Of a stretch of 64,000 bases of DNA, positions 35,037-51,109 are shown one piece after another. This DNA is from an uncultured delta proteobacterium. Its GTDB lineage: Bacteria; Desulfobacterota; DSM-4660; Desulfatiglandales; HGW-15. Within the stretch, counting starts at the first letter, position 1. Each line of letters begins with the position of its first letter. Under the pieces are notes generated by a model, which was not told the DNA's origin, made no database searches, and saw only the letters and a program-made list of their open reading frames with translations. The translations under genes were made by a program, and so were the position numbers. The stretch spans positions 52,601-116,600 of the forward strand of contig CAVPDE010000023.1 of NCBI GenBank assembly GCA_963702565.1, in the 5' to 3' direction.

Positions 35037-36479
35037 TCAAGTATTGATTCCACAAAGCCTCTTTGCTGCTGTCTGCTTCTCCGCCATATTGATCCGGCGG
35101 GCTATCATTATCCTTTGTGCCTGGGGAGATCCGGCACCATGCATCGATTCGGTAAGATAACCTACAGCAGCTGCCCCTAGAGTGATATTTTCAATTAACC
35201 TGAGGATTCGCATCCTATTTATTGTTGGCACATCGGAATTCCCTTTCAGGTATTTCGTCAGCCATTTTTCCGTCTCTGATGCCCTGAGGTCAGCATCCGA
35301 TGGCATCGTTACCATCAGCCCACCGGCAATATCCTGCGCAATGCGTGCGATCTCGTAGGGAAACCGAGTCACGTTTTGCTTGTGGACATTAGCAAGCAAT
35401 GTGTTGACGTTATAAGTGCCGCTGGGTTCTTTGTGCCCTTCAGAGGCACAAGCGATACATCCACAGTAAAGCGTTTCATTCAGATGATTCATCTCGACAA
35501 TCTTATCTCGGATATGTGAAGCATCCGCTACACCATTATACTCAGCAGCAGTCTGCGCTGCCCCTATCAAGACATCTCCTACTCCGACCTTACATGCATA
35601 GCTCTGTCTGTGATACGCGGCAAAAGTCTCTACTAATTGAGCAGCGAATTCATATTCCTTGAACATGAAAACTCTTTCCCATGGTACAAAAACATTGTCA
35701 AAGACCACAAGCGCTTCGTGCCCACCGAAAACCATATTTCCTGTATCGATTGTTTTCCCTTCTAGTTTTCTTGTGTCGCATGACTGCCTTCCCATGATGT
35801 AGACTATACCTTTTGCATCACTGGGAAGCGCAAAGGAAATTGCATAGTCTTTATCCTCCTCCGCCATCGCGATAGTGGGCATCACGATAATTTCGTGTGA
35901 GTTGACAGCTCCAGTCTGGTGAGCCTTGGCACCCCTGACCACTATGCCATCTTTGTTTTCGCCAACTACGTGCATGTACTGGTCGGGATCCGATTGTCTG
36001 TGAGGGGGTAACTTTCTGTCCCCTTTTGGATCGGTCATGGCTCCGTCGCATGTGAGATCGTTTTCCTGAACATATTCAAGATATCTCAAAAAGCGCTCAT
36101 TGTAATGGCTGCAATATTTCCGATCTATATTGTAAGTGACAATGGAGAGTGCATTGAGAGCATCCATGCCCACGCATCTCTGGAAACAGCATCCTGTCTC
36201 CCTGCCTAGCAACCTACCCATTTTACTCTTGCTTACCAAATCTGCCACGTTTTGATGAATATGAGTAAACCGATTAATCCTCTTTCCCGTAATATGAGAG
36301 GTTGCGCTCATTATATCATCGTGGTCTGGGGAATGAGCCAACTCGTACGTCTTGGCAACTGCTCTCATCGATGGGCGGATGATTGGGTCATCCACGACGT
36401 TTTCCACCCGCTTTCCAAACATGTACACAACCAAGTTCAAACGTCTGAGGCTTTCCTCATATTGTTCTGCTGTCATCAT
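35037..36479 (-). CDS. 4-hydroxybutyryl-CoA dehydratase / vinylacetyl-CoA isomerase (AbfD, HpaB-fold) family protein
   Basis: TGCCFQRCVGMDALNA and AYHRQSYACKVGVGD match the Fe-S ligand regions I recall for AbfD. ~480 aa. Start moved to ATG 36479. Confidence 0.8.
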   Translation of the reverse strand: MMTAEQYEESLRRLNLVVYMFGKRVENVVDDPIIRPSMRAVAKTYELAHSPDHDDIMSATSHITGKRINRFTHIHQNVADLVSKSKMGRLLGRETGCCFQRCVGMDALNALSIVTYNIDRKYCSHYNERFLRYLEYVQENDLTCDGAMTDPKGDRKLPPHRQSDPDQYMHVVGENKDGIVVRGAKAHQTGAVNSHEIIVMPTIAMAEEDKDYAISFALPSDAKGIVYIMGRQSCDTRKLEGKTIDTGNMVFGGHEALVVFDNVFVPWERVFMFKEYEFAAQLVETFAAYHRQSYACKVGVGDVLIGAAQTAAEYNGVADASHIRDKIVEMNHLNETLYCGCIACASEGHKEPSGTYNVNTLLANVHKQNVTRFPYEIARIAQDIAGGLMVTMPSDADLRASETEKWLTKYLKGNSDVPTINRMRILRLIENITLGAAAVGYLTESMHGAGSPQAQRIMIARRINMAEKQTAAKRLCGINT

Positions 36480-36565
36480 GGGAATCTGAATGCTCCTGAC
36501 TGTAAGAAATATGAACACGCTTTTTCGAGTTTAGACCCCTTCTCTTACCCTTTTCAGCTGCTATC

Positions 36566-36994
36566 CTAAGAAATGGTGCAAATGATTTCGCAGATTCTGT
36601 CGCCTCCCGCCTTGGTCTTAACAATTTCCAGCCGAGCCTTTCCATCACTTGCTGCCAGGAAATACTCACGGTCGATTGCCATGACCGCCTCACATAGCTG
36701 TCTTGATGTGTCTTCCAGCCCAAAAGGGCACTTGTTCCCCCGCATATGGAATTTATGATCCGTTAAGGTAATCACAGTGATTGTGGCCGGGTCGAAATTC
36801 TCTGCGAATGCAGCTCCAAGCGTCGATAGATTGCTATCAATCAACTTTCTTTTGACCTTCAAACCCAAAGCATGTCCCTGAAGGCCCATGACACGATCAA
36901 CGGTTGGCAGAACCTCATCTCCATATCGTTCGTAAAACGCTTTAACGAGCATGCCTTGCGCTTGGATTGCATTCTGAGGCAGTTTATCTTTCAT
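36566..36994 (-). CDS. Small Cys-motif protein (ATC-hydrolase-like, PF14196-like; tentative)
   Basis: C-terminal pattern KCPFGLED...LCEAVMAIDREYF...AGGDRICEIIC resembles the ATC_hydrolase family as I recall it. Confidence 0.5.
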   Translation of the reverse strand: MKDKLPQNAIQAQGMLVKAFYERYGDEVLPTVDRVMGLQGHALGLKVKRKLIDSNLSTLGAAFAENFDPATITVITLTDHKFHMRGNKCPFGLEDTSRQLCEAVMAIDREYFLAASDGKARLEIVKTKAGGDRICEIICTIS

Positions 36995-37078
36995 TCTTTG
37001 CCCTATTGGTTTCTTCGGGTACTTGTGGGTAGTGTAAATGGGGACTGTGGCTCCGCTGTCTATTCCTATTCAATCCGG

Positions 37079-37588
37079 CTACCCCACTGTAAACCGCCAA
37101 TTACAGAAGACTCCTTCCGGGTGCGGATCAGGAGGAGCAAAGAGACATTCCACCTTTATCTTAGCGTCTATTGCCCACGAGAAGTTTTCAAATTCCGTCC
37201 TTCGCATACCTTTGCAATGAAACTCTTCCAAACCTTGCCTCAGACGTGCCTTCTGCGTCGGGCAGGATTCGCCTGCGATCATAACCTCATGGGAGTTCCT
37301 GCTAATTCGCAGGCTAAGGATTGGACACCAGGGAAAAAGGCTTAGGGCTCTGAAGAGACTATCAAGACCGCCCCCCTGAATATGGAACCGCTTTGAGAGG
37401 CCGTTTGCGGCCATAGCCGAGACTTTCGCCCAAACGGCCTCGTTAATCTGCTCCGCGATTTCTTCACCGCATTTTTCGTTAACCTTTATGAACCAAAAGG
37501 AATCCACCAATCTATAGTGCCAGAGCAGAAAATCCAAATATTCTAATATCTCCTTCTTATCCATCCTTTCAAATAGACTTAAGTCCAT
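37079..37588 (-). CDS. Small conserved Cys-motif protein, paralogue of 1329-1850
   Basis: ATG 37588 preceded by GAGAGGA. Full-length similarity to 1329-1850, with four conserved Cys positions. Confidence 0.6.
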   Translation of the reverse strand: MDLSLFERMDKKEILEYLDFLLWHYRLVDSFWFIKVNEKCGEEIAEQINEAVWAKVSAMAANGLSKRFHIQGGGLDSLFRALSLFPWCPILSLRISRNSHEVMIAGESCPTQKARLRQGLEEFHCKGMRRTEFENFSWAIDAKIKVECLFAPPDPHPEGVFCNWRFTVG

Positions 37589-37663
37589 GCGTCCTCTCAA
37601 AATATGACGGCACGGATTTCTCTTTCGAGCAAGGATTTAGTGTCAGCCGATCATAAAGATAGA

Positions 37664-38446
37664 CTACCGACCGTGAAAATGGCTGTCCCTTCTTTCGTTA
37701 AATGCAGCGATCCCTTCCTTGGCATCCTCTGTCTCTTTTACCAGAAACACGATCCCCTTCAGGGCCTCGTCCAGACCGTTGGATATGGATTCACCATCGC
37801 ACTTCCTCAGGCATCGCTTGATTTCGGCAATCGCTTTGGTCGGCTTTGCTGCCAGTTCCGAGGCAAGTCTTCTGCTTTCGTTGGCGAGCGCTTTGCCGTC
37901 GAACATCTCATGGATCAATCCAATCCTCAATGCCTCCGGCGCGGTCAGCGCTTTCCCGAAGAGCAATAAATCCACTGCCTTGCTGGGTCCCACCAGCCGG
38001 CGCAGTCGCTGAATGCCCCCGCCAGCTGGCATCAAGCCGAGGTTTATTTCAGGCAAACCAATTTTGACTCCGCCCGTTGCCATGAAACGCAAGTCACAGC
38101 AAAGGGCCAGTTCACAGCCTCCACCCATGGCGTGACCCCCGATAACCGCGATGGTAGGTTGCTGAAGAGACTCGAATCCCGTGAATACCGTCTGGATTTT
38201 CCTCATGTATTCGCGAAGTGCGGCCTTTGACAAGGACAGAATCATTTTCAGATCCGCACCGGCCATAAACACATTTCTTAGCCTACTCTCCAAAATCACT
38301 GCCCTGGTGCTTGTGTCTTCCATCAGTTCAAGCACCGCTCTCTCTAGCCCTTCGAGCAGCTCCAAACTTAGAGAGTTGACGGGCGGTGAATTCATAACCA
38401 CCCTGGCGACGGCATCGGTCTTGATCAGGTTGACGAATTCAGGCAT
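37664..38446 (-). CDS. Enoyl-CoA hydratase/isomerase (crotonase) family protein
   Basis: FMAGADLK and VIGGHAMGGGCELALCCDLRF oxyanion-hole motifs. Start moved to ATG 38446. Confidence 0.85.
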   Translation of the reverse strand: MPEFVNLIKTDAVARVVMNSPPVNSLSLELLEGLERAVLELMEDTSTRAVILESRLRNVFMAGADLKMILSLSKAALREYMRKIQTVFTGFESLQQPTIAVIGGHAMGGGCELALCCDLRFMATGGVKIGLPEINLGLMPAGGGIQRLRRLVGPSKAVDLLLFGKALTAPEALRIGLIHEMFDGKALANESRRLASELAAKPTKAIAEIKRCLRKCDGESISNGLDEALKGIVFLVKETEDAKEGIAAFNERRDSHFHGR

Positions 38447-38471
38447 TATTCTTGACCCCGCACCGAGTGAT

Positions 38472-39659
38472 TTATTCGGACCTTTCGGCGACAAACTCAA
38501 TCAGGCTCCTTACCTCGATCCCGACCTTGCTCTTTCTATTAGCCGCAGAAAGATTCTCGACACAGCGAACGCATGGTGTGAGCATGATATCCGCTACCCC
38601 CTTGGCCTCCTCGCATCGCTTTCTTGAGTGATACTCGGTGAATTCCGGAGTAAGCGTCGAGGTCACGCTATTCCCACCACCACAGCAGGCGGACCACCGC
38701 CGGACATAGGTCATTTCCCTAAACTCAGCCCCAGGTATAGCATTTATCACCCTGCGCGTTTCTCCGTATAAATCATGGTGCCGCCCGATATGCTGTTTAC
38801 CGAAATGACATGGGTCATGCAGCGTGACGCGGGTCTTACCTAGATCTTTCATATGAATCTTACCCGAATCCATGAGGTCTGAAAGCAATTCCACAGCATG
38901 AACCACTTTGAAAGGCAGTTCCCCTCCTAAGATTGCCGGATAGTCGGTATAAAAGGTTCGATAGCAGTTGGCGCATGAAACTACCAGAGTTTTGGCCCCT
39001 GACTGCTCAATTGCCTTCACGTTGCGGGCGGCCAGGGTTTTCTCCAATTCGATATCTCCCGAAAATCCCGCGTGCAACCCGCAGCACCACTCTTCTCTGC
39101 CCAGGTAGGCCGGATTGACACCTCCTTTGCGCATCAGTTCCACCAGTCCGACCGCTGTGTTAGGCTGTCTGAAAGATGCGTAGCAGCCAGCGAAATAGAG
39201 GACCTCCCCTTCTTTTGGTAGGTTCATGTCCTTTGACCATTTCGCCCTATTTTCATTCGAAGCCCCAAAAAGGTTCTGCTGGTCACGCATCTTAGTGTTC
39301 AATTCAATGCACTTTTTCGGGGCGAATCCTTCCCTGAACAGTTCCGCCTTCATAGCCCGACTGATGTACATGTGCGGAATGGGAGGACAGATCGTATCGC
39401 AGCACCCACAGTCCGGGCACGCGTAGAAAATGTCTGCGAGTTCCTTGTTCAGCTTCATTTTTCCATGGATTACCTCTCGAGCATAGAAAGCCTTGGCCCT
39501 AGCCGAATTGGAGAAAAAATTGTAATAGTCCACGGTCGGGCAGGTCCATATGTCAACTGTTTCATGGCCGTCTTTGAACGGCACATAGGGTCCTCGACCG
39601 AAACACTGTGAATCACCTACACATCGATAAACGGAGTCTTTTATATCCACCAATTTCAT
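38472..39659 (-). CDS. (Fe-S)-binding protein with two CCG domains (HdrD/GlcF-like)
   Basis: Ferredoxin-type CPDCGCCDTICP, plus cysteine-rich CCG motifs (EWCCG, HDPCH, ACCGGG). ATGA overlap with the upstream FAD oxidase gene. Confidence 0.8.
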   Translation of the reverse strand: MKLVDIKDSVYRCVGDSQCFGRGPYVPFKDGHETVDIWTCPTVDYYNFFSNSARAKAFYAREVIHGKMKLNKELADIFYACPDCGCCDTICPPIPHMYISRAMKAELFREGFAPKKCIELNTKMRDQQNLFGASNENRAKWSKDMNLPKEGEVLYFAGCYASFRQPNTAVGLVELMRKGGVNPAYLGREEWCCGLHAGFSGDIELEKTLAARNVKAIEQSGAKTLVVSCANCYRTFYTDYPAILGGELPFKVVHAVELLSDLMDSGKIHMKDLGKTRVTLHDPCHFGKQHIGRHHDLYGETRRVINAIPGAEFREMTYVRRWSACCGGGNSVTSTLTPEFTEYHSRKRCEEAKGVADIMLTPCVRCVENLSAANRKSKVGIEVRSLIEFVAERSE

Positions 39660-41083
39660 GACAACCCTCCATATGTCCGCGATGGGTTCATAATCATATT
39701 CGGATCCAAGAATTTCTTAATTTTTCGCGTCAGATCCCACTGACTTCCGAGCACTTCAAAATTCTGGTTCGGAAAGGAATCGCCGAGGTCGTATTGTACG
39801 CAACCGATGGCGCACAACTCTATGTTGAGTTCATCCCACCACACCTTTAATCTTTTCACTTCCTCCTCGTCTGTGGGATTGCCGCCCGCCAGTAGGGGAT
39901 AGGGATTGCAAGTGTTGCGCCCATGAAAGGAGAACCAGGCCGGGCAGTGCTGGGCGTCCCAGAAGTCGTGCTTTCGCGTCACGTTTTCCCAAATGTCATA
40001 AACTTCCGGAAATTTCTTTACAGCACACCAGAAATAGGTTGCTTCAATACGCTGCATCCACTTGGAAACACTCAGCCAGATACGGTAATGGGGCGGTCCC
40101 ATGGTAAGGGTTCCAAGGTTTCCCAGGTCTACCGCCTTGTTCCGTTCCGCGATTTCCACCATACGCTTTCTTTCCAAATCCAGTTCGATATCGCTTTGCC
40201 CGTCCACACTCACCATGGCGATGAAATGGATGTCTTCGGGCAGCGCCACGGTTCCCTGCACCTCCGCTGCATGGTAATTCCAGCGATTGATGAGGAAGAA
40301 GTCATAGACGAATTTTCTTTGCATCCAGTACATCGCCTCAGTCAGTTCTGAAGCGTGCTCCCTCTTCCAACCGTAACAGAGTATGGCCTCCTTTTCCGGC
40401 GCGGGCTTTACCCGAACCGCCACCTTGGTGATGATCCCCAAAGCTCCGCCAGCATTGACGAAAAGGCCCATAAGGTCAGGCCCTCCCACGTACCTCTGAT
40501 AGTGGCCCCATCCCTTTTCCATGGCCCCTGGCCCAAAGGTGATTAGTTCACCGGTGGGCATGACCACTTCAAGACCCACGATGTTATCGCCCATGGAGCC
40601 GTATCGGGTCATATAGTTGCCTGTAATATTGCAAGAAACGCCCGATCCGATCTGGGGTCCCGGCGTATACAAGGGCATGAAGGGAAAGCGCAGTCCCCGC
40701 TTGTCCAGTTCACGCATGATCCAGTACACAGAGCATCCGGCGTCAGCAACGACCACCATATTGTCCTCATCGATCTCGATGCTCTTGTTCATGCGAGACA
40801 TCTCCACTACGATACCCCCTTTATGGGCTACGTTCATGCCACAGCTGTTGGTCCTCGCGCCCTGGGGAACGATCGGAATCTTATACCTGTTCGCCAGCTT
40901 GACGACTTCCGATACCTCTAAGGCGCTGCCGGGCATCACGACCGCATCAGCCGGCTTCATCCCGATGATATCCGCGCCGGTTCCTTGCACAAACGCATAG
41001 GCCTTCAAGTCAGTCTCCGACGTGGTTACATGCCTGCCGCCGACAATGGACTCTAGTTCTCGAACAATTTCGCCATTGATCAT
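39656..41083 (-). CDS. FAD-linked oxidase (GlcD/D-lactate dehydrogenase-like)
   Basis: FAD_binding_4-type N-terminal half (VVMPGSALEVSEVVKLANRYKIPIVPQGARTN) with an FAD-oxidase C-terminal half. Confidence 0.85.
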   Translation of the reverse strand: MINGEIVRELESIVGGRHVTTSETDLKAYAFVQGTGADIIGMKPADAVVMPGSALEVSEVVKLANRYKIPIVPQGARTNSCGMNVAHKGGIVVEMSRMNKSIEIDEDNMVVVADAGCSVYWIMRELDKRGLRFPFMPLYTPGPQIGSGVSCNITGNYMTRYGSMGDNIVGLEVVMPTGELITFGPGAMEKGWGHYQRYVGGPDLMGLFVNAGGALGIITKVAVRVKPAPEKEAILCYGWKREHASELTEAMYWMQRKFVYDFFLINRWNYHAAEVQGTVALPEDIHFIAMVSVDGQSDIELDLERKRMVEIAERNKAVDLGNLGTLTMGPPHYRIWLSVSKWMQRIEATYFWCAVKKFPEVYDIWENVTRKHDFWDAQHCPAWFSFHGRNTCNPYPLLAGGNPTDEEEVKRLKVWWDELNIELCAIGCVQYDLGDSFPNQNFEVLGSQWDLTRKIKKFLDPNMIMNPSRTYGGLS

Positions 41084-41219: not shown

Positions 41220-42386
41220 TCAAGTCTTCAGTATGTTCACCGTGGCTACGCACGGCTCTCCCTGCATGAAACCGCCATTACAGTGGGTTAAGCCCACTTT
41301 CGCATTCAACACCTGCCGGGTGCCCGCCTGCCCACGCAGGTGCCTAGTGATCTCCACTAACTGGGCAACGCCAGTGGCCCCTACGGGATGACCTTTAGCT
41401 AGGAGACCGCCACTGACATTGATGGGAATATGGCCTCCGATCCGCGTGGCGCCCTCCCTGATAAGTTTGGGGCCTTCCCCTTTCTTGCAAAATCCAAGAT
41501 CCTCGTAATGGAGCAGTTCTGCAATGGAGAAGCAGTCATGCACTTCAGCCAGATCTATATCTTCCGGCCCGATGCCCGCTTTTTCATATGCCTCTCTCCC
41601 GGCTCTGACATTCACCGGCAAAGTGCTGAGGTCATTGGTTTGCCGGTACTCTGCAGAAGTCAGGACGCTCGCGGCAACCAAGACAGGCTTGGACGTATAT
41701 TTGGACGCTTCGGAGGCCGGACAGAGGACTACTGCAGCCGCGCCGTCACTGAAAGGACAGCAGTCTAGCAGGTGCAGGGGATCCGCGATCATCTTGGAGT
41801 TGAGAACATCTTCTACCGAATATTTCTCTTTGTATTGGGCGTTCGGGTTCAGAAGTCCGTTGTCATGGTTTTTTACGGATATGGCTGCTAAGTCTTCAAC
41901 CTTGGTGCCATAGGCCTCAATGTGTTTTTGAGCCAGAAGGGCAAAAGCTGCAGGAAAATTCATTCCATTTCCCGATTCCATTTCCACATCAGAGGCGCTA
42001 GCCATGGCTCGGACTGCCTGGGCGGTTGGAAGACCAGTTAGTTTTTCCGCCCCCACGACGAGCACGAGATCATAGTAGCCGCTTGCCACATTAATACAGG
42101 CCTCCGTAAAGGCGGAAGACCCGCTGGAACAAGCGTTTTCCATTGTAACGATCGGAATACCGGATATACCGGCAGTTCTCATGATGACATGTCCCAGAAT
42201 CATCTCCTGGCCCGTGAAGGCACCGGAAAGGGCATTTCCACAATAGGCCTTCTGGATCCTTTCGGGCTTTGCACTGCAATCCCTCAATGCCTGCCAGATC
42301 GCATCAGCGCCTAACTGTCGAATGCTCACATCGGGGAACTTACCGAAGCTGGTCATCCCTACACCACAAATCGCAACTTGCCTCAT
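41220..42386 (-). CDS. Thiolase-fold protein of the SCP-x/archaeal type (partner of DUF35)
   Basis: VAICGVGMTSFGKF N-terminus, active-site Cys context MENACSSGS, C-terminal HCNGG. Start moved to ATG 42386. Confidence 0.85.
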   Translation of the reverse strand: MRQVAICGVGMTSFGKFPDVSIRQLGADAIWQALRDCSAKPERIQKAYCGNALSGAFTGQEMILGHVIMRTAGISGIPIVTMENACSSGSSAFTEACINVASGYYDLVLVVGAEKLTGLPTAQAVRAMASASDVEMESGNGMNFPAAFALLAQKHIEAYGTKVEDLAAISVKNHDNGLLNPNAQYKEKYSVEDVLNSKMIADPLHLLDCCPFSDGAAAVVLCPASEASKYTSKPVLVAASVLTSAEYRQTNDLSTLPVNVRAGREAYEKAGIGPEDIDLAEVHDCFSIAELLHYEDLGFCKKGEGPKLIREGATRIGGHIPINVSGGLLAKGHPVGATGVAQLVEITRHLRGQAGTRQVLNAKVGLTHCNGGFMQGEPCVATVNILKT

Positions 42387-42474
42387 GACTTCACCACCCT
42401 GTTCTTCTAAGGTTTGCAGGAGAGTTCGGTTCAATATGCATCTCTATAAACAAAGAATCCCCACAACTCTCCCC

Positions 42475-42885: not shown

Positions 42886-42903
42886 TCTCTTGCCCCCTCG
42901 CGC

Positions 42904-44211
42904 CTATTCCACTTTTCTGTGGTCTAGTATCTTCGGTGCGTCGGCGGCGATCTCTCCCGGCTTTGACCAGGCAATTTCCGGCAATATGCCCAGGGCGATC
43001 TTAAACCGACCTACCAGGTTCTTCCTAAACTCGTCATTTTGCTCTATCTCCGGGCATTCAATTCTTATTGTCAAACGATCCGCCTTATTCGGTCTGTCGA
43101 TGACAAGCTGGTATCGGCCAAAGTCCTTGTAGGAGTTCAGAACTAGCTCCACTCTTCGCGGGGGGATGAACATGCCTTTGACCCGAGGAATATCGCCCAC
43201 TCTCCCAAGGATTCGCTTCATCTTGGGGCTTTTCCTGCCGCAGGGACATTCCGCATAGCTGATACCTTCCGTTATGTCACCCGTTCGATAATTCAATATC
43301 GGCATCGCCTTGCGATGGAGGTCGCTCGTGACGATTTCTCCCGACTCTCCGTCTTTAACCTGAAGGCCAGTATTGGGATCTATTACGCTGACCAGGGTAT
43401 CGCTATAGAGATGCACCCCCCCGCCGTATGGGCATTCCGCACCGACAAAGCCCATCTCGTTTCCGACGTACATTTCCCGGACCTCTGCGCCGAAAAGCTC
43501 CCCAATTCGCTTCTTGTCGTCATCTGTCCTGATTTCCCCGACGATGATGATCAAGCGCAGACACATGTCTCTGACCGGGTCCACACCCATTTTTATTGCG
43601 GTTTCACACAGGTGGATTGCGTAGGTAGGAAAGGCGGAGAGAACGGTTGCCCTAGTCAGTTTCATCAGTTCAACATGAGTCTCACTCATCCCGGCGCCCC
43701 CGGGTAGCACCGCGCAACCGATCCTTCTATATGCGTCATCATGCTGAGTGCCGGCTCCCACCCAGTTGTAATTGAACGATACATCGACAACGTCCCCGCT
43801 TCTCGCCCCCGCGAGATACAGCCCCATGGCAGCTCTTTCAATATATGACTTCAGGTCGGATCGGCTTAGGATGATCAACAAGGGGCCTGGAGAGTGATAC
43901 AACCTTACGATCTCATGGGCCGGGACCGACAGGAGGTCTCCATAAGGCGGCTTTCTTGCCTGCTCATCCATTAGTATCGTCTTGCTGATGAATGGAGCCT
44001 TTTTCAGGAAATCCTCAGGCGTTCTGATCCCCTCGGGCTCAAATCCTGCGTCTTTGAACCGCTTGCGATAAAAAAGATTCTCCCTGCTCACGTATTTTAG
44101 GATGCTCTTCAGCCGGGACAGCTGGATTTCTCTTTGTTCTTCGATAGAGAGACTCTCCCACTTCAGGTCCCAGAATTCCGCTTCAGGAGGCATGATTTTC
44201 TCGGTTGCCAT
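42904..44211 (-). CDS. Phenylacetate-CoA ligase-like (PaaK / F390 synthetase family) adenylate-forming enzyme
   Basis: N-terminal LSRLKSILKYV..N.FYRKRFKDAGF..E.I.T.EDF.K.PF..K pattern and ~435-aa length are typical of PaaK-type ligases. Confidence 0.8.
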   Translation of the reverse strand: MATEKIMPPEAEFWDLKWESLSIEEQREIQLSRLKSILKYVSRENLFYRKRFKDAGFEPEGIRTPEDFLKKAPFISKTILMDEQARKPPYGDLLSVPAHEIVRLYHSPGPLLIILSRSDLKSYIERAAMGLYLAGARSGDVVDVSFNYNWVGAGTQHDDAYRRIGCAVLPGGAGMSETHVELMKLTRATVLSAFPTYAIHLCETAIKMGVDPVRDMCLRLIIIVGEIRTDDDKKRIGELFGAEVREMYVGNEMGFVGAECPYGGGVHLYSDTLVSVIDPNTGLQVKDGESGEIVTSDLHRKAMPILNYRTGDITEGISYAECPCGRKSPKMKRILGRVGDIPRVKGMFIPPRRVELVLNSYKDFGRYQLVIDRPNKADRLTIRIECPEIEQNDEFRKNLVGRFKIALGILPEIAWSKPGEIAADAPKILDHRKVE

Positions 44212-44275
44212 CTCTCTTCCTCGCGTGTCTTGTAAGTACTAATGCAAACGCATTTATTCATTTGCCATTCAGCCC

Positions 44276-44322
44276 CCTCACCCTTCCCCTATCCCTCAGC
44301 TTGGGAGGAGGGCGGGGTGAGG
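44276..44322. repeat. GC-rich intercistronic hairpin
   Basis: 'cctcaccc' (44276-44283) pairs with 'gggtgagg' (44315-44322). Lies between the binding-protein gene and the PaaK-like gene. Confidence 0.4.
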
Positions 44323-44421
44323 AGGTGGCGTCCAGCGTAAAAGGATTTATTACGTTTATATTGATCCCCCCATAGGGCACCTGTGAAGGCGCGGCTCCTA
44401 TGGGTGGGATTCTTAAATGGT

Positions 44422-45636
44422 TTACTGACCCAAGACCTTTTTCGCTATCGGCTGGGGCGATTCAATCCAGTCTGAGGCCGACACGAGATCTTCCAGCCCC
44501 AAATCTGACTTGCAGATTATGCCCCCCAGTGACATCACTCTTCTTTGAGGGCTCAGCGTAATCGGCGGGACGACTCCTTGTGTGTCCCAGTTCTTGAATG
44601 TATCCCACGCGTCCACGAACTTTTCCACGGTAAGATTCTTGCCCGCCCGCTCAAGTGCTTCCACAATGAAAAGAGCCGGATACCAACCCAGGATGTAGTA
44701 ATAGCTCTTTGCCTCGAGGTCCTCGGGCTGCGCATACTTTTTCGAGATCTCAATCATCTTCTGAATCCCGGGGCTCTTTGCGTCACTCCACCTCCCCTGC
44801 GAGTCCACTGAGTAGTACCTTGTTGCCGCGTCTTTGGCCTGCTCCACAATTTTTCGGTCAGAGGCAGGAGACAACACCCCGTATGTGTCACACTGTAAAC
44901 CCTGGCTCTTCATTTCCAGCAAAAGACTGGATACATCCCCGGAATGGGCACCCACCAGAAGGTATTCGACTCCTTCGCGTTTGAATTTCGTCACCGCGGA
45001 CTTGTCGATGGGTGATCCGGTGATGTTCGGCGCTTCTGCCGCCAGTTTCAGACCATAGTGCTCCATGGCCATTTCCACGCCTTTTTTCCCAGACCTTCCA
45101 AAGTCATCATTGTTGAAAAAGAGGCCGATCTTCGCTTGTTTTTTACCTAGCTTTTCCACAAGGTACGTCACCACTGCGGCAGCCTGCAGTTCATAGGGTG
45201 TAATCATTGCAGTAACATACCTGCTCGGAGGGTTGAACAACGATGTGCCGCCGCTCACACAAAGCATAGGAATCTTTTCCTCGTTGGCAGGTTCTTTCAA
45301 AATCGTGACCGGCGGGGTCCCCCAGGCGATGACCGCCATGACTTTATCTCTGGTGGCAAGCTTCTTAAATTCCGCAAGGGACCTACTCGGTTCATATTGA
45401 TGATCGGCCACCACAAGCTCGATTTTTCTCCCGTGAACACCACCCTTCGTCTCGTTAATGTATTTGAAATAGGCCTGAAGAGCGTCCACAGATGCCTTTC
45501 CGGCGTGAGCAAGTAAACGGCTCAGGGGCGCTACGATTCCAATCTTGACTGTAGTATCGCTTATCCCCTGTGTCGAATCCGCCATAGCCATACCCGGCAA
45601 ACCCAGAATAACCGCCAGTGCAAGAATCCGAATCAT
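44422..45636 (-). CDS. ABC transporter substrate-binding protein (LivJ/K, type-I PBP fold)
   Basis: Signal peptide MIRILALAVILGLPGMAMA, then Leu/Ile/Val-binding-protein-like sequence. Start moved to ATG 45636. Confidence 0.85.
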   Translation of the reverse strand: MIRILALAVILGLPGMAMADSTQGISDTTVKIGIVAPLSRLLAHAGKASVDALQAYFKYINETKGGVHGRKIELVVADHQYEPSRSLAEFKKLATRDKVMAVIAWGTPPVTILKEPANEEKIPMLCVSGGTSLFNPPSRYVTAMITPYELQAAAVVTYLVEKLGKKQAKIGLFFNNDDFGRSGKKGVEMAMEHYGLKLAAEAPNITGSPIDKSAVTKFKREGVEYLLVGAHSGDVSSLLLEMKSQGLQCDTYGVLSPASDRKIVEQAKDAATRYYSVDSQGRWSDAKSPGIQKMIEISKKYAQPEDLEAKSYYYILGWYPALFIVEALERAGKNLTVEKFVDAWDTFKNWDTQGVVPPITLSPQRRVMSLGGIICKSDLGLEDLVSASDWIESPQPIAKKVLGQ

Positions 45637-45730
45637 TCCATTCTTCCCTTCATTGCTTGAATCAGTGTCATGGTTGCGCCTCCTGTTCCACAAAAAGGTT
45701 AAAAGAACAAAATGTCTTGAACCCCAAGAC

Positions 45731-46801
45731 CTAATAAGTGAAGGGCCAGTTTGTGAAATAGACCTTGACCCTCCGCCACCTTCCAGCCAAACCATCAGGT
45801 TCCCATATCAGGAACACCACGATGATGATGCCGTACACGAAAGTTTTCATGTCACCGAATCGCGTCGAAATGAGGGGATAATAGACGCTCAACATGTCCG
45901 TCACTGCATTCAAGAGGAAAGGAAGCAATGTGATCGCGATGGAACCTAGAATGCTGCCTACCACGCTTCCCAAGCCGCCAACGATGACCATGGAGATATA
46001 GGATATCGACAGAAGAAGTGTGAAATCATAAGGCGCAACCCTGCCCAGGCATCCTGCCATTAAGGCCCCCGCGATGCCTGCATAAACGGAGCTAATGAAA
46101 AAGGATAGTAGCTTATACTTGGTCAGGGATATGCCTATGGCCTCCGCAGCCAGATCCCGATCCCTGATTGCGCAAAGGGCCCTACCGATCTTGGACCGGC
46201 CAAGGTTTGCAGCCACAAAGACCATGGAGAGACAGAAAGCAAGCTCGAAGTAATAGAATTTCCACTCCATCCTCAAGCTGTAACCCAGTAAGGAAGGCTT
46301 CGGAATCGTCAGACCTTGGTAGCCCCCTGTAAGTCCCTCCCAGTTCATGATCGTCTGCTCGACAATGAAATGGAAAGCCAGGGTGGCCATCGCCAGATAA
46401 AGTCCCTTCATCCTCAACGCGGGCATCCCGATGATCACGCCCATGACACCGCTCACGAACCCAGCGCCGAGAACGGCCATTAGGATGGGCAACTGGAGCT
46501 TCCCGTACATCAGCGCGTACGCGTACGCCCCGATCGCTACGAAGGCTCCATGCCCGAGAGAAATTTGCCCCGTGTACCCCGTCAGGATATTCAGTCCCAG
46601 GCTTGCTATGATGGAAATCATCACAAGATTCGCGATATAGACGGAGTATCGATCCGAGATGGCAGGGTATAGCACTACAAAACAGAGGAGGGCGAAGAGC
46701 CAGAACCGTTTGAAGAGGGTTCTGAACACAATGAGCTCCTCACTGTATTCACGGCTAAAGTATCGCGTTCTCACGCGGGGTAAAAGGATTCTGCTTTTCA
46801 A
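45731..46801 (-). CDS. livM: Branched-chain-amino-acid-type ABC permease
   Basis: ~350-aa polytopic LivM-like protein. TTG start at 46801 (start uncertain). Confidence 0.8.
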   Translation of the reverse strand: MKSRILLPRVRTRYFSREYSEELIVFRTLFKRFWLFALLCFVVLYPAISDRYSVYIANLVMISIIASLGLNILTGYTGQISLGHGAFVAIGAYAYALMYGKLQLPILMAVLGAGFVSGVMGVIIGMPALRMKGLYLAMATLAFHFIVEQTIMNWEGLTGGYQGLTIPKPSLLGYSLRMEWKFYYFELAFCLSMVFVAANLGRSKIGRALCAIRDRDLAAEAIGISLTKYKLLSFFISSVYAGIAGALMAGCLGRVAPYDFTLLLSISYISMVIVGGLGSVVGSILGSIAITLLPFLLNAVTDMLSVYYPLISTRFGDMKTFVYGIIIVVFLIWEPDGLAGRWRRVKVYFTNWPFTY

Positions 46802-46808
46802 CTTGGCT

Positions 46809-47702
46809 TCACACCCTTTCTATTTCCTTGATGCCGAACAACCCATAGGGCTTGACTACAAGAACGAGCAATAGGATCAGGTATGGCGTGATCTGTTGCC
46901 AGGTTCCGCCGATATATCCTCCTACGATATTTTCCGCTATGCCTACGATGATGCCACCAAGAATCACGCCTTTAATGCTTTCAATGCCTCCCAGAACCAC
47001 GGCTGGAAGCGCCTTGAGCCCGAAGTTAGCCATGTTGGGTGTGGTGATGGTAAGCCCTGCCAGAACAATGCCTCCGAACACGGAAATGACCCCGGAGATG
47101 GACCAGGAATAGGAAAAAACCTTCGGGACATCTATGCCCATGATCATTGCCGAGGTCTGGTTGGTAGCGGTGGCCCGCATTGCAATTCCGAAACGGGAGA
47201 ACTTGTAAAAAAGGCTAAAGGCGATGACCAGAATCAGTGACAGACAGATGACGGCAATATCGCCGAAACTCAGAGAGACGTTAAAAAGTCTCACAGATTG
47301 CTTAAACATGGGCACGGTCAGTATCTGTTCTTCCTGCGTCCAGATAAGGCCCACCAGTCCTCGTATAGCGACACTCAATCCGACCGTGAGCATCACCACA
47401 GAGAAAATAGGCTCGCCAATCATCTGGCGGACAAAAAGTCGCTCTAGGATAGCACCCAGAAGGAAGGCCAGGAAAAGGGATATCGGAACGATCAGGAGAA
47501 ATGGGATTCCCAGGATCATGTTCAGCGTCAGAGTGAAGTACGCACCGAGCATCATCATTTCACCCTGCGCAAGGTTGAGGACCTTGGTGGATTTGAAAAT
47601 GATGACGAACCCCAAACCTACCAGAGAATACACACAGCCCATAGACATCCCGCTGACGATAAGCTGGCTTAAAAACTCAATTTGGGTCATCGATCTCTCC
47701 AT
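46809..47702 (-). CDS. livH: Branched-chain-amino-acid-type ABC permease
   Basis: ~295-aa polytopic LivH-like protein. Alternative ATG at 47690 has the better RBS. Confidence 0.85.
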   Translation of the reverse strand: MERSMTQIEFLSQLIVSGMSMGCVYSLVGLGFVIIFKSTKVLNLAQGEMMMLGAYFTLTLNMILGIPFLLIVPISLFLAFLLGAILERLFVRQMIGEPIFSVVMLTVGLSVAIRGLVGLIWTQEEQILTVPMFKQSVRLFNVSLSFGDIAVICLSLILVIAFSLFYKFSRFGIAMRATATNQTSAMIMGIDVPKVFSYSWSISGVISVFGGIVLAGLTITTPNMANFGLKALPAVVLGGIESIKGVILGGIIVGIAENIVGGYIGGTWQQITPYLILLLVLVVKPYGLFGIKEIERV

Positions 47703-49523
47703 CTACAGGTAAAGGGATTCAATGATCGCACTGTATTTATCCGTCACAAAGGACCGTCTAAGCTTGCGAGTCCGGGTGACCTCGGAGCTGTCGGCATCGA
47801 GTTCCTTTTTCAAAAGCTCGTATCTCTGAATACGGCCGGTCTCAGGAAGCTTCTGGTTTACCCGCTCCACACTCTGGCCGATCATTTCTATGACTTGGGG
47901 CTTTGAGGCCAAGTCCTGAAAGGTCGTATAGGGGATTCGTTTTCGCTGGGCCCAATTGCCCACGTTTTCCATGTCGATCTGGATTAGCGCCGCCACATAA
48001 GGCTTACTCTGCCCAACGACCACGGCTTCTTTGATGTAAGGGGAGAATTTGAGGCGGTTCTCGACGAGTTGCGGCGAAAACCGATAACCGTTTTCCAGTT
48101 GGATGATATCCTTCTGACGATCAATAACCACCAGATGGCCGTTTGCGTTAAAATATCCCTGATCACCGGTCTTCAACCACCCATCTGAGATGGCTTCCTT
48201 TGTGGCTGTATCGTCATTGAAATACCCCAGGAAGTGAGGGCTACGCACGAGGACTTCGTCGGTCTCCGATAGTTTTATTTCAATATCCGGCAAAGGTTTT
48301 CCCGTCGTCTCAGGATCGGCTTCCCCGGGTGGTTGGATACAGCAAACCCCGCCGACTTCTGTTTGCCCGTAGATTTGCCTCAGGTCTAATCCAATTCCGT
48401 GAAAGAAACTGTAGACCTCCGGCCCAAGGGCCGCGCCGCCAGTATACGCAAAACGGACCAACCTCAGTCCCAGCCGTTCGCGGATCTTACGAAAGAGAAA
48501 AAGGTCTCCCAGGAGATATTTGATTTTCATCCAAAACGGGACGGGCTTTCCTGAAAGCAGGCTGTTGGCGACACTTTCTCCGATAGGCATTAGGAGGTCA
48601 AAAACCGCTCTTTTCAGCCAGCTCGCGTTGTCGCGCTTGAGATAGACCGTGGTGCAGAAGCCTTCCCACACTCTAGGCGCGCAAATAAGAATTGAAGGAC
48701 AGATTTCTCGCATATTTTGAAAAACAACACTTAGTTCCATCGTTTCAGGGAAATTAACCTTGTAGCGTGCCTTCATGTGGAAGATCACAGAGAAGAATCT
48801 TTCCACGATCCATGGTAGAGGGAGGTAAGATACTTCCTCGTCGTCGGGACCATAGCTATCTAATTTCATGAGTGCTTCGGCCAACTTCAAAACACATTTA
48901 TGGCTGAGCATGACCGTCTTCGGATTTTTTGTGGTCCCCGAGGTAGTACACAGGAACGCAGTATCCTCAGGCTTAACCTGTGAAATGCTTTCCTCCAGTT
49001 CGGTGGGGCGCCCTGACAGACGTCGTCTCCCGGTCTCTTCCAGTTCCGAGTAACTAATGAGGATAGGGTGATCGTAGTCTTCCATTCCATCAGGTTCTAT
49101 GAAGATGCATTTCTGCAGAGTTGGAACCTTGTCTGCGATGTTTAAAATCTTATCTGCCTGTTCCTGATCTTCCACCACGATAAACTTGCCAGAGTTGTGA
49201 TTGAGGGCATATTCTAATTCTGGTTCAAGGCAATCTGCGTAAATACCGAGGGGAAATGCTCCGGCGCATTGGCATGCCACATCGACATACACCCACTCAG
49301 GCCTGTTCGAGGACAGAATGAGCACCACATCTCCCTTTTGAAGACCCATAGATTTAAGGCCATGGAAAACTGTCTCTACGTGATTCCGGTACCCGGCCCA
49401 AGTAGTTTCCTCCCAGATCCCGAAATTCTTGTACCTAAGGGCAACCTTCAGTCCACAATCTTTCACGGTAGATATAAAAATCCCTGGGAGGGTGGCTATT
49501 TCGTCCAAGTACTCTTCTGTCAT
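47703..49523 (-). CDS. AMP-dependent synthetase/ligase (long-chain acyl-CoA synthetase-like) embedded in the ABC operon
   Basis: AMP-binding signature TSGTTKNPKTVMLSH. 606 aa. ATGA overlap with livG. Confidence 0.85.
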   Translation of the reverse strand: MTEEYLDEIATLPGIFISTVKDCGLKVALRYKNFGIWEETTWAGYRNHVETVFHGLKSMGLQKGDVVLILSSNRPEWVYVDVACQCAGAFPLGIYADCLEPELEYALNHNSGKFIVVEDQEQADKILNIADKVPTLQKCIFIEPDGMEDYDHPILISYSELEETGRRRLSGRPTELEESISQVKPEDTAFLCTTSGTTKNPKTVMLSHKCVLKLAEALMKLDSYGPDDEEVSYLPLPWIVERFFSVIFHMKARYKVNFPETMELSVVFQNMREICPSILICAPRVWEGFCTTVYLKRDNASWLKRAVFDLLMPIGESVANSLLSGKPVPFWMKIKYLLGDLFLFRKIRERLGLRLVRFAYTGGAALGPEVYSFFHGIGLDLRQIYGQTEVGGVCCIQPPGEADPETTGKPLPDIEIKLSETDEVLVRSPHFLGYFNDDTATKEAISDGWLKTGDQGYFNANGHLVVIDRQKDIIQLENGYRFSPQLVENRLKFSPYIKEAVVVGQSKPYVAALIQIDMENVGNWAQRKRIPYTTFQDLASKPQVIEMIGQSVERVNQKLPETGRIQRYELLKKELDADSSEVTRTRKLRRSFVTDKYSAIIESLYL

Positions 49524-50290
49524 CCCTGCATCCTCTTGCTGCCCAAGTAAGCTTCGATCACGCGATGATCATTTTGAACGGTATCTGGTGATCCCTCAGC
49601 GATTTTCTCGCCATAACTCATGACCGTGACTCGGTCAGAGATATCCATGACCACGTTCATATCGTGCTCGACCAGGACGATGGGTATGTTCCAAATCCGC
49701 TTTATCCCGAGAATAAACCTCACGATGTCCTCTTTCTCCTCGAGGTTCATTCCGCTTGTGGGTTCATCGAGAAAGAGGATTTTCGGCTCCATGGCTAGTG
49801 CCCGCCCAAGTTCAACTTTCTTCTTCTGCCCATATGGCATGCTGCCCACGAGTTCCTTCCTGATGTCTTCCATCTCGAGAAAATCTATGATCTCCTCGAC
49901 TTTCCTCCTGTGGGCCACCTCCTCTCGTTTTGCCTTGCGATAGTACCAGGTTGCAGCCAAGGGGCCGTATCGGAAGTGGACGTGCCTACCCAAAAGGATA
50001 TTTTCCAGGGCAGTCAGGTTTCTGAACAATTCAATATTCTGGAAAAACCTTGCTATACCTAATTTGGCAATCTGGTGGGGCTTGAAATCATTGACCCTCA
50101 GTCCATCGATAGTAATATCGCCTACCTGAGGCTTATAAAATCCAAAGATACTGTTTATGACGCTAGTCTTCCCTGCTCCATTGGGTCCGATCAAGGCATA
50201 GATGCCGGCATCCTTGATATGAAAATCAAATTGATTGATGACTCTCAGACCTGAGAAACTCAAGGTGAGTCTGTCGATCTTTAATTCCAT
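49520..50290 (-). CDS. livG: ABC transporter ATP-binding protein (LivG-type)
   Basis: Walker A GPNGAGKTS, Walker B FLDEPTSG, H-loop VEHDM. Confidence 0.9.
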   Translation of the reverse strand: MELKIDRLTLSFSGLRVINQFDFHIKDAGIYALIGPNGAGKTSVINSIFGFYKPQVGDITIDGLRVNDFKPHQIAKLGIARFFQNIELFRNLTALENILLGRHVHFRYGPLAATWYYRKAKREEVAHRRKVEEIIDFLEMEDIRKELVGSMPYGQKKKVELGRALAMEPKILFLDEPTSGMNLEEKEDIVRFILGIKRIWNIPIVLVEHDMNVVMDISDRVTVMSYGEKIAEGSPDTVQNDHRVIEAYLGSKRMQG

Positions 50291-50299
50291 TGAATGCCC

Positions 50300-51109
50300 T
50301 TACGAGAACCAGTGTCTACGCTTCTTGTACGTCTTGACGCTTAAATAGCTTTTCCGGCGCCCGCTGGATGAAATGCCCAGGTAGAATTCCTTTACTTCCG
50401 GAGCTTCCTTAACGACAGCGGGGCTGCCATCCATCACGATACCCCCATTCTCCATGATATACACATAGTCGGCAGTGGCGAATGCAATGGAGGCGTTTTG
50501 CTCCACCACCAAAATGGATACTCCCTCGCCATTTCTGATGCTCTTGACAATATCAAAGATAGTTTCGACCATCAGGGGAGCCAACCCCAGCGAAGGCTCA
50601 TCAAGGATGAGAATCGTCGGCTTGCCCATCAGTGCGCGAGCGATAGCCAACATCTGCTGCTCGCCTCCCGACAGATACCCTGCTGTCTCCCGTTTTCTTT
50701 TCTTCAGAATGGGGAAGTAAGAGCAGACTTTTTCGTAGTCAGCGGCAAAAGTTGTTCCTGCTCTTGCAACATGTGCCCCGACCCGTATGTTCTCCTCTAC
50801 GGTCATATCCTCGAAAATCCCTCTTCCCTCCGGAACCATCATGATCCCCCGCTTCACCACCTCAGGGGTAGGTCTGGACACAATATTTTCGCCCCTCAGG
50901 CGTATGGATCCTTTTGTAACCCTCCCCTCGAGAGGTTTTAACACCCCCTTACCCATGACGCACCGGAGAGTGGTCGTCTTTCCCGCGCCATTCGTTCCTA
51001 AGAGCGCAAGGATTTGGTGCTCCTTCAGGCTAATGGACACGCCGCTGATCGCGAGTATGAACCTCTGGTAAGTACACTCGAGATTGTCTATTTCAAGGAG
51101 AGAGGACAA
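50300..51109 (-). CDS. livF: ABC transporter ATP-binding protein (LivF-type)
   Basis: Walker A GTNGAGKTT, signature LSGGEQQML, Walker B ILDEPSLG. TTG start lies 5 nt after GGGGGA. Confidence 0.9.
   Translation of the reverse strand: MSSLLEIDNLECTYQRFILAISGVSISLKEHQILALLGTNGAGKTTTLRCVMGKGVLKPLEGRVTKGSIRLRGENIVSRPTPEVVKRGIMMVPEGRGIFEDMTVEENIRVGAHVARAGTTFAADYEKVCSYFPILKKRKRETAGYLSGGEQQMLAIARALMGKPTILILDEPSLGLAPLMVETIFDIVKSIRNGEGVSILVVEQNASIAFATADYVYIMENGGIVMDGSPAVVKEAPEVKEFYLGISSSGRRKSYLSVKTYKKRRHWFS

Follow-up and report, generated by a model that had tools for sequence, protein, structure and literature searches.

What does an uncultured delta proteobacterium take up and degrade with an operon that joins a Liv-type importer to two unlike coenzyme A (CoA) ligases, a dehydratase, a hydratase, a thiolase and a flavin/iron-sulfur redox pair? 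The question is raised by 15 genes at positions 35037–51109 of a 64,000-nucleotide stretch of contig CAVPDE010000023.1 (contig positions 52,601 to 116,600), hereafter called the window; the gene content of the host was read from this 64-kb window only. An initial annotation of this DNA had described a complete catabolic route without a named substrate and had seen no match to the classical 4-hydroxybutyrate pathway. Here we report that the last gene of the operon encodes, judged by its sequence, a canonical 4-hydroxybutyryl-CoA dehydratase, and we propose, with a probability of roughly 45 %, that the operon serves the substrate-inducible catabolism of a small hydroxy-acid via 4-hydroxybutyryl-CoA and crotonyl-CoA to acetyl-CoA. 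The genes for dehydration, hydration and thiolysis are the following:

35037–36518, minus strand: 4-hydroxybutyryl-CoA dehydratase/vinylacetyl-CoA isomerase AbfD (HpaB_N/HpaB), start probably at 36479.
37664–38500, minus strand: enoyl-CoA hydratase (crotonase; ECH_1, E=1e-49), start possibly at 38446.
41220–42434, minus strand: SCP2/archaeal-type thiolase (Thiolase_C_1 and Thiolase_N), start probably at about 42386.
42475–42885, minus strand: DUF35 partner of the thiolase, with Zn-ribbon and OB domains (OB_ChsH2_C and zf-ChsH2).

AbfD matches the Clostridium aminobutyricum enzyme (1u8v) with E=2.3e-197 over residues 14–491 at 62.6 % identity and vinylacetyl-CoA isomerase (6vjr) with E=5e-180, while true 4-hydroxyphenylacetate hydroxylases reach only about 1e-35. 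The comparison of active-site residues with the C. aminobutyricum enzyme, which had been suggested as a check, found all 11 listed residues conserved. C99, C103, H292 and C299, the ligands of the [4Fe-4S] cluster, are kept, although one residue is deleted from the interval that separates the His from the final Cys, and Q101, T190, E257, Y296, K300, E455 and A460, reported from mutagenesis work as catalytic and substrate-site residues, are all identical to 1u8v. The label “AbfD-like” in the initial annotation was thus right as to the family but understated the enzyme. With a canonical AbfD, 4-hydroxybutyryl-CoA and crotonyl-CoA are very probably intermediates of the operon, and the route shares the core of the classical 4-hydroxybutyrate pathway, contrary to what had been supposed.

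The crotonase retains the GGGCE and PEINLG contexts, which we take from rat crotonase to be those of both catalytic Glu residues. The thiolase carries NACSSG, HDC and CNGG motifs and adjoins the Zn-ribbon/OB protein, as in SCP2-type thiolases with a DUF35 partner. It passes only the general thiolase-domain model PRK06064 (443.5 bits, cut-off 420), its next-best model being an archaeal acetoacetyl-CoA thiolase (406 bits). A BbsAB-type benzoylsuccinyl-CoA thiolase was considered and rejected, as the cut-offs were missed both by the thiolase (BbsB, 279.6 bits, cut-off 750) and by the DUF35 protein (BbsA model, 71.5 bits, cut-off 250). In a related cluster, L092 in the list below, the thiolase slot is occupied by a classical acetoacetyl-CoA thiolase (TIGR01930, 368 bits, cut-off 240.55). 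This replacement, together with the nearness of the window enzyme to archaeal acetoacetyl-CoA thiolase, indicates a short, unbranched 3-oxoacyl-CoA, and the exchange of the whole DUF35/thiolase pair in L092 makes a bulky substrate unlikely. The earlier view that such a pair points to bulky or branched 3-oxoacyl-CoAs is therefore weakened by the failed BbsB cut-off as well as by the swap.

Between the thiolase and crotonase genes lies the redox pair, a flavoprotein binding flavin adenine dinucleotide (FAD) and its iron-sulfur partner:

39656–41083, minus strand: FAD flavoprotein with a D-lactate-dehydrogenase/vanillyl-alcohol oxidase (VAO) fold (FAD_binding_4, E=4e-32).
38472–39659, minus strand: HdrD/GlcF-like iron-sulfur partner with two CCG domains (CCG, E=1e-27, two stretches).

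In the partner, a single complete CxxCxxCxxxCP motif accompanies two CCG motifs. This pair was used to compare the operon with ten other contigs, for which the identity of the flavoprotein to that of the window is given in brackets:

L002 (80 %): transporter with embedded ligase, PaaK-type ligase, DUF35 protein, thiolase, flavoprotein, CCG protein and AbfD, no hydratase.
L087 (81 %): as L002, plus a DUF169 protein, crotonase and an 80-residue DUF6125 remnant before AbfD.
L088 (80 %): thiolase, flavoprotein, CCG protein and MaoC hydratase.
L005 (Syntrophorhabdales metagenome-assembled genome (MAG), about 50 %): TetR regulator, transporter with ligase, crotonase, flavoprotein, CCG protein, generic AMP ligase, KAS-III-like/DUF35 fusion, thiolase, AbfD and a metallo-beta-lactamase-fold protein.
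L092 (51 %): TetR regulator, transporter with ligase, crotonase, flavoprotein, CCG protein, classical acetoacetyl-CoA thiolase, generic ligase and AbfD.
L093 (45–47 %): crotonase, aldehyde dehydrogenase, ligase, flavoprotein, CCG protein, AbfD, ligase, thiolase, DUF35 protein and CoA-transferase, with no Liv transporter within the stretch read.
L123 and L096: pair again linked to transporter and crotonase.
L003 (near-duplicate L004): pair with only a ligase and a CoA-transferase.
L089 (Thorarchaeota): pair with only an aminotransferase.

The short fragments L001, L006, L094 and L095 hold nothing beyond the pair. In all contigs examined, the flavoprotein gene is followed by the CCG gene, which in L004 and L093 is present as frameshifted fragments. 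Beside the pair, the ten contigs encode AbfD in five cases, a thiolase in six and a hydratase in seven, and a ligase-containing Liv transporter in five plus one partial case; a 3-hydroxyacyl-CoA or acyl-CoA dehydrogenase stands beside it in none, and the remainder of the 64-kb window is likewise without either. The transporter-ligase unit, the pair, AbfD and the thiolase occur together in L002, L087, L005 and L092, the last three also having a hydratase, and flavoprotein identities across these four and L093 span 45–81 %. The gene-neighbourhood analysis that had been proposed as a test thus found the core co-conserved in L002, L087, L005, L092 and L093, and for no such cluster did we find a published pathway assignment in the literature searched, which extended to DUF6125, to AbfD together with DUF35 or a thiolase, to AbfD from Desulfobacterota or from proteomics papers and to ABC transporters accompanied by ligases. 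The regulator varies: where the window has a sigma-54 activator, L005 and L092 have one of the TetR type.

Some features of these contigs are recorded as observations in their own right. In L005, frameshifted transposase-like remnants of open reading frames (ORFs) lie between the crotonase and flavoprotein genes (9172–9981), and DUF35 is fused to a KAS-III/HMG-CoA-synthase-like domain (14280–15692, 470 residues) in a gene adjoining the thiolase, which recalls the archaeal thiolase/HMG-CoA synthase/DUF35 complex. L003 has a Lar_N gene near the pair.

What the pair does is the least conventional part of the operon. The flavoprotein has about 47 relatives at 36–94 % identity, after which there is a sharp fall to ordinary GlcD homologs at 30 % or below. 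All of these relatives derive from metagenomes or MAGs, the named sources including Syntrophorhabdales and Thorarchaeota, and no cultured organism is found among them. Scanning genome contigs with the full-length alignment gave only ordinary GlcD homologs (at most 31 % identity) among the matches listed, and a scan of metagenome contigs with the C-terminal alignment, dominated by the generic DPNxIMNP motif, gave three true members on the short contigs L094–L096. A structure model built from 27 family members (predicted local distance difference test score, pLDDT, 85) best matches mouse LDHD (8jde; Foldseek template-modelling (TM) score 0.82, E=2e-33, 22–23 % identity), followed by vanillyl-alcohol/eugenol oxidases and alkyl-dihydroxyacetone-phosphate synthase, and the profile alignment with mouse LDHD (8jdc) spans the full length. 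In this alignment the LDHD metal motifs GHVGDGNFH and GEHG face WFSF(H/A)xRNxxNPYP and GCxQY in the family. The first metal His corresponds to H387 of the window protein, a position that is His in only 17 of 27 members (His/Ala), the second to P394-Y395-P396, the Glu to Q430 and the His that follows it to Y431; the mouse triad we take to be H398, H405 and E442, of which H405 is backed by the listed H405A structure entries. W383, R389, N390, Y395 and Y431 are almost invariant in the family.

With the LDHD fold present and the metal site replaced, the flavoprotein shares its fold with the characterised D-2-hydroxyacid dehydrogenases but not their active site. Its assignment to that type was rejected, the His-His-Glu triad being replaced and the GlcD model TIGR00387 giving 121.6 bits against a cut-off of 567.9. 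The designation “GlcD/HdrD-like redox pair” consequently holds for the fold and for the CCG partner, but with the metal triad gone it describes the fold and not the chemistry. By its sequence the flavoprotein appears to represent a new clade, found only in metagenomes and with a reaction not assigned in the literature searched. Besides the new-clade pair, L088 encodes, 8 kb away, another GlcD/CCG pair (10615–12492) that is canonical and has a full FAD-oxidase_C domain; the two pairs on this contig are probably not redundant.

Upstream in the operon lie the genes for import and CoA activation:

50300–51109, minus strand: ATP-binding cassette (ABC) ATPase, LivF-like (ABC_tran, E=8e-28).
49520–50290, minus strand: ABC ATPase, LivG-like (ABC_tran and BCA_ABC_TP_C).
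47703–49523, minus strand: embedded AMP-forming acyl-CoA ligase, FadD11-like (AMP-binding, E=1e-54, and AMP-binding_C_3).
46809–47702, minus strand: ABC permease, LivH-like (BPD_transp_2, E=3e-34).
45731–46801, minus strand: ABC permease, LivM-like (BPD_transp_2, E=5e-44).
44422–45636, minus strand: periplasmic substrate-binding protein (Peripla_BP_6, E=2e-51) with a signal-peptide-like N-terminus.
42904–44211, minus strand: PaaK-family acyl-CoA ligase (AMP-binding_C_2).

Two ATPases, two permeases and a Peripla_BP_6 protein, with an AMP-binding gene set between those for the ATPases and those for the permeases, make this a Liv/HAAT-type system. Its gene order, including the ligase, is common to L002, L087, L005 and L092, and L123 has the same components in another order; the embedded ligase keeps its place in the transporter in all five. 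The LivF-like ATPase is 60–74 % identical in the first four clusters, and the binding protein and transporter proteins are 59–79 % identical there, which for the binding protein suggests one substrate. Among solved structures, 4n03 is the nearest to the binding protein (E=2e-31). The embedded ligase scores 298 bits against the FadD11 model, whose cut-off is 950. The second ligase was rejected as a true PaaK and belongs only to the wider PaaK-like fold family, since it stays under the equivalog cut-offs (179 against 646 bits for TIGR02155, 201 against 700 for NF041878). Among solved structures it matches 4r1l (E=5e-57) and 2-hydroxyisobutyryl-CoA synthetase 6hdw (E=5e-43), being equally near to the latter enzyme and to some PaaK enzymes. 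It is restricted to the closest clusters, L002 and L087; generic AMP ligases stand in for it in L005, L092 and L093, and it does not belong to the conserved module. Taken across the clusters, the replacements of ligase and thiolase suggest that the conserved chemistry is short-chain and argue against a bulky, branched or aromatic substrate.

Expression of the operon appears to be controlled by the following elements:

51232–51246, minus strand: sigma-54 (-24/-12) promoter TGGCACATCTTTTGC, with zero mismatches to TGGCAC-N5-TTGC.
51316–51360, no strand: palindromic GCGCAA/TTGCGC repeats (inverted repeats I1, I4 and I6), a candidate activator site.
51787–54630, plus strand: divergent sigma-54 enhancer-binding protein with TPR, GAF, AAA+ and HTH_8 domains (Sigma54_activat, E=3e-71).

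The initial annotation was borne out here. The 15 successive ORFs, all on the minus strand, were recovered at the coordinates given beforehand, with gaps of at most 210 nt (the widest at 44212–44421) and ATGA overlaps, read from the ORF coordinates, for two gene pairs at 49520–49523 and 39656–39659, the former being the 4-nt overlap of the LivG-like ATPase stop with the start of the next gene. The expected Pfam family was found for each gene except a 142-residue protein without any Pfam match. In the order of transcription these are two ABC ATPases, the AMP-binding ligase, two BPD_transp_2 permeases, Peripla_BP_6, the PaaK-family ligase, DUF35, the SCP2-type thiolase, FAD_binding_4, CCG, crotonase, DUF6125, the 142-residue protein and the HpaB-fold protein. 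Likely start codons downstream of the ORF limits, among them one at about 37588 for the DUF6125 gene, leave this overall picture unchanged. Terminator-like sites within the operon region show no excess (23 observed, 18.2 ± 4.3 in shuffled sequence). The consensus sigma-54 promoter claimed upstream is present as the sole exact TGGCAC-N5-TTGC in the 64-kb window, about 120 nt before the first gene; with one mismatch permitted there are six sites, no excess over a chance mean of 4.48. The divergent activator has GAFTGA at residue 686 and the Walker A motif GETGVGK at residue 639, and the GCGCAA/TTGCGC repeats, 70–115 nt upstream of the -24/-12 element, are a plausible candidate for its binding site. 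At the level of predicted sites, this confirms a real operon that forms one sigma-54-type transcription unit. An 83-residue ORF (51431–51682, plus strand) between the promoter region and the activator gene, on the strand of the latter, could be a small gene of its own or a severed part of the activator's N-terminus.

The proposed route, the most economical in that each conserved gene obtains one role, then runs as follows. Under the control of the sigma-54 promoter and the divergent TPR-GAF enhancer-binding protein, the Liv/HAAT-type importer would bring in a small hydroxy-carboxylate, for which we infer 4-hydroxybutyrate as the simplest candidate. Activation to the CoA ester would fall to the embedded ligase, the PaaK-family ligase or both. 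AbfD would convert 4-hydroxybutyryl-CoA to crotonyl-CoA and the crotonase would hydrate this to 3-hydroxybutyryl-CoA. Oxidation to acetoacetyl-CoA is proposed for the flavoprotein/CCG pair with a quinone or a thiol/disulfide as acceptor instead of nicotinamide adenine dinucleotide (NAD+), and the thiolase/DUF35 pair would finally yield two acetyl-CoA. Of the complete route described initially, the importer, the CoA ligases, the dehydratase, the hydratase, the single FAD/iron-sulfur module and the thiolase stand, whereas thiolysis of a bulky substrate is weakened and the PaaK-type ligase is not conserved across the clusters. No gene for a 3-hydroxyacyl-CoA or acyl-CoA dehydrogenase is found in the clusters or the window, which leaves the pair as the only candidate there for the oxidation step, and in L088 the pair lies between thiolase and MaoC hydratase, which we count for the proposal, as we do the sequence kinship of the PaaK-family ligase to a ligase for a small hydroxy-acid, 2-hydroxyisobutyrate. 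The reverse, biosynthetic direction (acetyl-CoA to 4-hydroxybutyrate to succinate) was rejected, importer and AMP-forming ligases pointing the opposite way. A role of the flavoprotein as succinate-semialdehyde reductase was likewise set aside, being judged thermodynamically and mechanistically unlikely for a FAD/CCG system.

Several points weigh against this route, most of them touching the oxidation step. We know of no GlcD, LDHD or VAO member that acts on acyl-CoA thioesters, and the close structural relatives of the flavoprotein all oxidise free 2-hydroxy-acids or alcohols. Crotonase yields (S)- and MaoC (R)-3-hydroxyacyl-CoA, and one dehydrogenase should not take both. A housekeeping 3-hydroxybutyryl-CoA dehydrogenase may be encoded elsewhere in the genome, beyond the 64 kb that the window covers of its 249-kb contig. 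The pair occurs without AbfD or thiolase in L003 and in the thorarchaeotal L089, where it stands beside an aminotransferase. Two ligases would be redundant if the substrate were simply 4-hydroxybutyrate, and 4n03, probably a fatty-acid binder, hints at a longer one. The whole proposal, moreover, draws on sequence and predicted structure. That the pair is an NAD-independent 3-hydroxyacyl-CoA dehydrogenase passing electrons to a quinone or thiol/disulfide acceptor is accordingly put forward as a doubtful suggestion, well below the route itself in likelihood.

The hint of a longer substrate leads to the first alternative, namely that a longer hydroxy-fatty or lactone-derived acid, such as an even-chain omega-hydroxy acid from cutin or suberin or 6-hydroxyhexanoate, is activated by the FadD11-like ligase and shortened by housekeeping beta-oxidation to 4-hydroxybutyryl-CoA, whereupon AbfD, crotonase and thiolase take the remainder, with the terminal hydroxyl or a 3-hydroxy intermediate as possible targets of oxidation by the flavoprotein pair. 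It would give a place to the two unlike ligases of the operon, to the long-chain fatty-acid ligase models that score best with the embedded ligase and to the additional aldehyde dehydrogenase and CoA-transferase of L093. Those scores, however, lie far under every curated cut-off and do not fix the chain length, and an acyl-CoA dehydrogenase is found in no cluster; we consider this substrate unlikely. Counted in its favour is that the related contigs derive from JGI, ENA and Logan metagenomes, some of them presumably from peat or sediment samples.

A comparably low likelihood attaches to a second alternative, in which the pair oxidises an imported free hydroxy-acid, for instance (R)-3-hydroxybutyrate to acetoacetate, which ligase and thiolase would then process, with AbfD and crotonase as a side entry for 4-hydroxybutyrate; mixed 3- and 4-hydroxy C4 acids such as polyhydroxyalkanoate monomers would be the substrates. 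The nearest fold is that of D-lactate dehydrogenases acting on free acids, the nearly invariant Arg389 could bind a carboxylate, and the second ligase would obtain a role. The company of the pair in L003 (ligase and CoA-transferase) and in L089 (aminotransferase), where AbfD and thiolase are missing, also fits a free-acid substrate better. Against it, the His-His-Glu metal site of the characterised D-2-hydroxyacid dehydrogenases is missing, 3-hydroxy-acids are to our knowledge not substrates of this flavoprotein family, and the 4-hydroxybutyrate branch would still be short of a 3-hydroxybutyryl-CoA dehydrogenase. An aromatic or alicyclic acid, with the pair acting on a ring-bearing substrate, finds some resemblance in the PaaK and BbsA/BbsB families, in the weak likeness of the DUF6125 protein to phenol-sensor V4R domains and in the GlcDEF-like/Hdr-like complex beside CoA ligases in benzene degraders (PMC13101534), a loose likeness to what is proposed for benzene activation in ORM2, but is very improbable given that the PaaK, BbsA and BbsB equivalog cut-offs are missed by wide margins, orthologous clusters have generic enzymes in place of the PaaK-type ligase and DUF35 thiolase, the cluster does not conserve DUF6125, AbfD retains every residue needed for 4-hydroxybutyryl-CoA and the operon has no ring-reducing or ring-cleaving genes.

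Two small proteins with Cys motifs are encoded between the crotonase and AbfD:

37079–37600, minus strand: DUF6125 protein (DUF6125, E=1e-25), start probably at about 37588.
36566–36994, minus strand: 142-residue Cys protein of a MetOD1/ATC_hydrolase-like family, assigned through the Pfam matches of its relatives.

Homologs of the former, at about 55 % identity, number more than 1700, Methanocella included. Its structure model (pLDDT 84) gives weak Foldseek matches to the V4R phenol-sensor domains of PoxR and MopR (TM score 0.54, best E 6e-3 to 7e-3), and further weak matches to H-NOX and Bet3 are consistent in kind; a V4R-like ligand-binding fold is a candidate for this protein. Among the relatives of the 142-residue protein, 11 of 22 match MetOD1 and six match ATC_hydrolase; they are 56–67 % identical, mostly from Syntrophales MAGs, and lie in unrelated neighbourhoods. 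Homology of the two proteins to each other was rejected (no BLASTP match, hhalign probability 0.2 %). DUF6125 is absent from the other clusters save for the 33 %-identical remnant in L087, and the 142-residue protein is absent from all those compared. With neither conserved in the cluster and both families widespread in unrelated contexts, the two do not belong to the module in which they had been included; they look like non-essential ligand- or metal-binding accessories, and a connection with the TPR-GAF activator is speculation. L087 has DUF169 in their place (13061–13849), and variable small proteins seem to gather at this place between the CCG and AbfD genes.

As for the surroundings, the G+C content is 0.46–0.53 at 34000–58000 of the window and 0.53–0.65 over most of 1–34000, and the flanks hold an IS200-like transposase gene (22197–23330) and a PIN/Phd toxin-antitoxin pair (58599–59473); a segment of lower G+C content, possibly acquired, may include operon and activator. 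Just downstream of AbfD, a plus-strand gene set (25384–33276) comprises a thiamine-diphosphate enzyme split over two overlapping ORFs (26471–27733 and 27678–28727, the second with an epimerase domain), an MFS transporter, a short-chain dehydrogenase (31077–31883) and an iron-type alcohol dehydrogenase (31998–32909) that stops at 303 residues and is followed by an ORF in another frame (32818–33276), and so may be interrupted by a frameshift. Iron-type alcohol dehydrogenases include 4-hydroxybutyrate dehydrogenases, which makes a link to the operon possible. On the minus strand, 10548–18534 encodes two LarA-like proteins of the lactate-racemase family, a DctP/DctM TRAP transporter, a PdxA-like dehydrogenase and an SBD_N/NBD_C kinase, and looks like a cluster for the utilisation of hydroxy-acids or sugar-acids. 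At the right end lie a second Peripla_BP_6 binding protein (61597–62934, minus strand) and a gene of the 3-hydroxyisobutyrate-dehydrogenase family (59537–60430, plus strand), a family that includes succinate-semialdehyde reductases.

Among known systems, the clostridial fermentation of 4-aminobutyrate and succinate (C. aminobutyricum, C. kluyveri) shares AbfD, 4-hydroxybutyryl-CoA and crotonyl-CoA with the operon. Its genes encode 4-hydroxybutyrate dehydrogenase, the AbfT CoA-transferase and AbfD, whereas the operon has AMP-forming ligases instead of a CoA-transferase, an ABC importer, the FAD/iron-sulfur pair and sigma-54 control, and is without an NAD-dependent 4-hydroxybutyrate dehydrogenase; the operon probably belongs to an anaerobe that lives by respiration or in syntrophy and not by fermentation. 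The archaeal 3-hydroxypropionate/4-hydroxybutyrate and dicarboxylate/4-hydroxybutyrate cycles have the same succession of ligase, dehydratase, crotonyl-CoA hydratase, oxidation and acetoacetyl-CoA thiolase, and the operon thiolase resembles the archaeal type that works with a DUF35 partner. Unlike these cycles, the operon would be catabolic and importer-linked and would not serve CO2 fixation, and in place of the archaeal fused hydratase/NAD-dependent 3-hydroxybutyryl-CoA dehydrogenase it has the flavoprotein/iron-sulfur pair. This pair shares FAD_binding_4, the overall fold and a CCG partner encoded immediately downstream with GlcD/GlcF and LDHD dehydrogenases, but differs from GlcD and LDHD in its 22–23 % identity, the replaced metal positions and its genomic partners, which are CoA-ester enzymes. 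A loose parallel, by description only, is the “Magic” cluster of the benzene-degrading Desulfobacterota ORM2, where a GlcDEF-like/Hdr-like complex lies beside CoA-activating enzymes and hydratases (PMC13101534); there, too, an uncharacterised GlcD-like flavoprotein and an Hdr-like iron-sulfur protein with degenerate Cys motifs occur in a strict anaerobe. The ORM2 complex differs from the operon pair in that two flavoproteins take part in a GlcDEF-like trimer, the paper names neither AbfD nor a thiolase or an ABC importer for the “Magic” subclusters, and the cluster is described as without obvious candidates to carry out dehydrogenation, oxidation and thiolysis (PMC13101534). The operon shares with BbsAB and other DUF35/SCP2-thiolase pairs the two-gene architecture of a Zn-ribbon/OB protein and an SCP2-type thiolase.

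The best-known roles of 4-hydroxybutyryl-CoA dehydratase are in the fermentations of clostridia and in CO2 fixation by archaea; here the enzyme stands in a conserved, importer-linked and presumably catabolic module of uncultured anaerobes, probably from sediment, peat and reactor-type settings. If the proposed route is true, 4-hydroxybutyrate, or acids ending in it, would be a dedicated growth substrate in anoxic habitats. The flavoprotein represents a new flavoenzyme clade with a D-lactate dehydrogenase fold, an apparently rebuilt, metal-free active site and, in every case, an HdrD-like partner, and the genes that surround it point to a reaction so far undescribed in the superfamily. Should the pair prove to be an NAD-independent 3-hydroxyacyl-CoA dehydrogenase, no earlier member of the GlcD/VAO superfamily would have been shown to work on acyl-CoA thioesters, and sulfate reducers and syntrophs would have a new way of handling this redox step.

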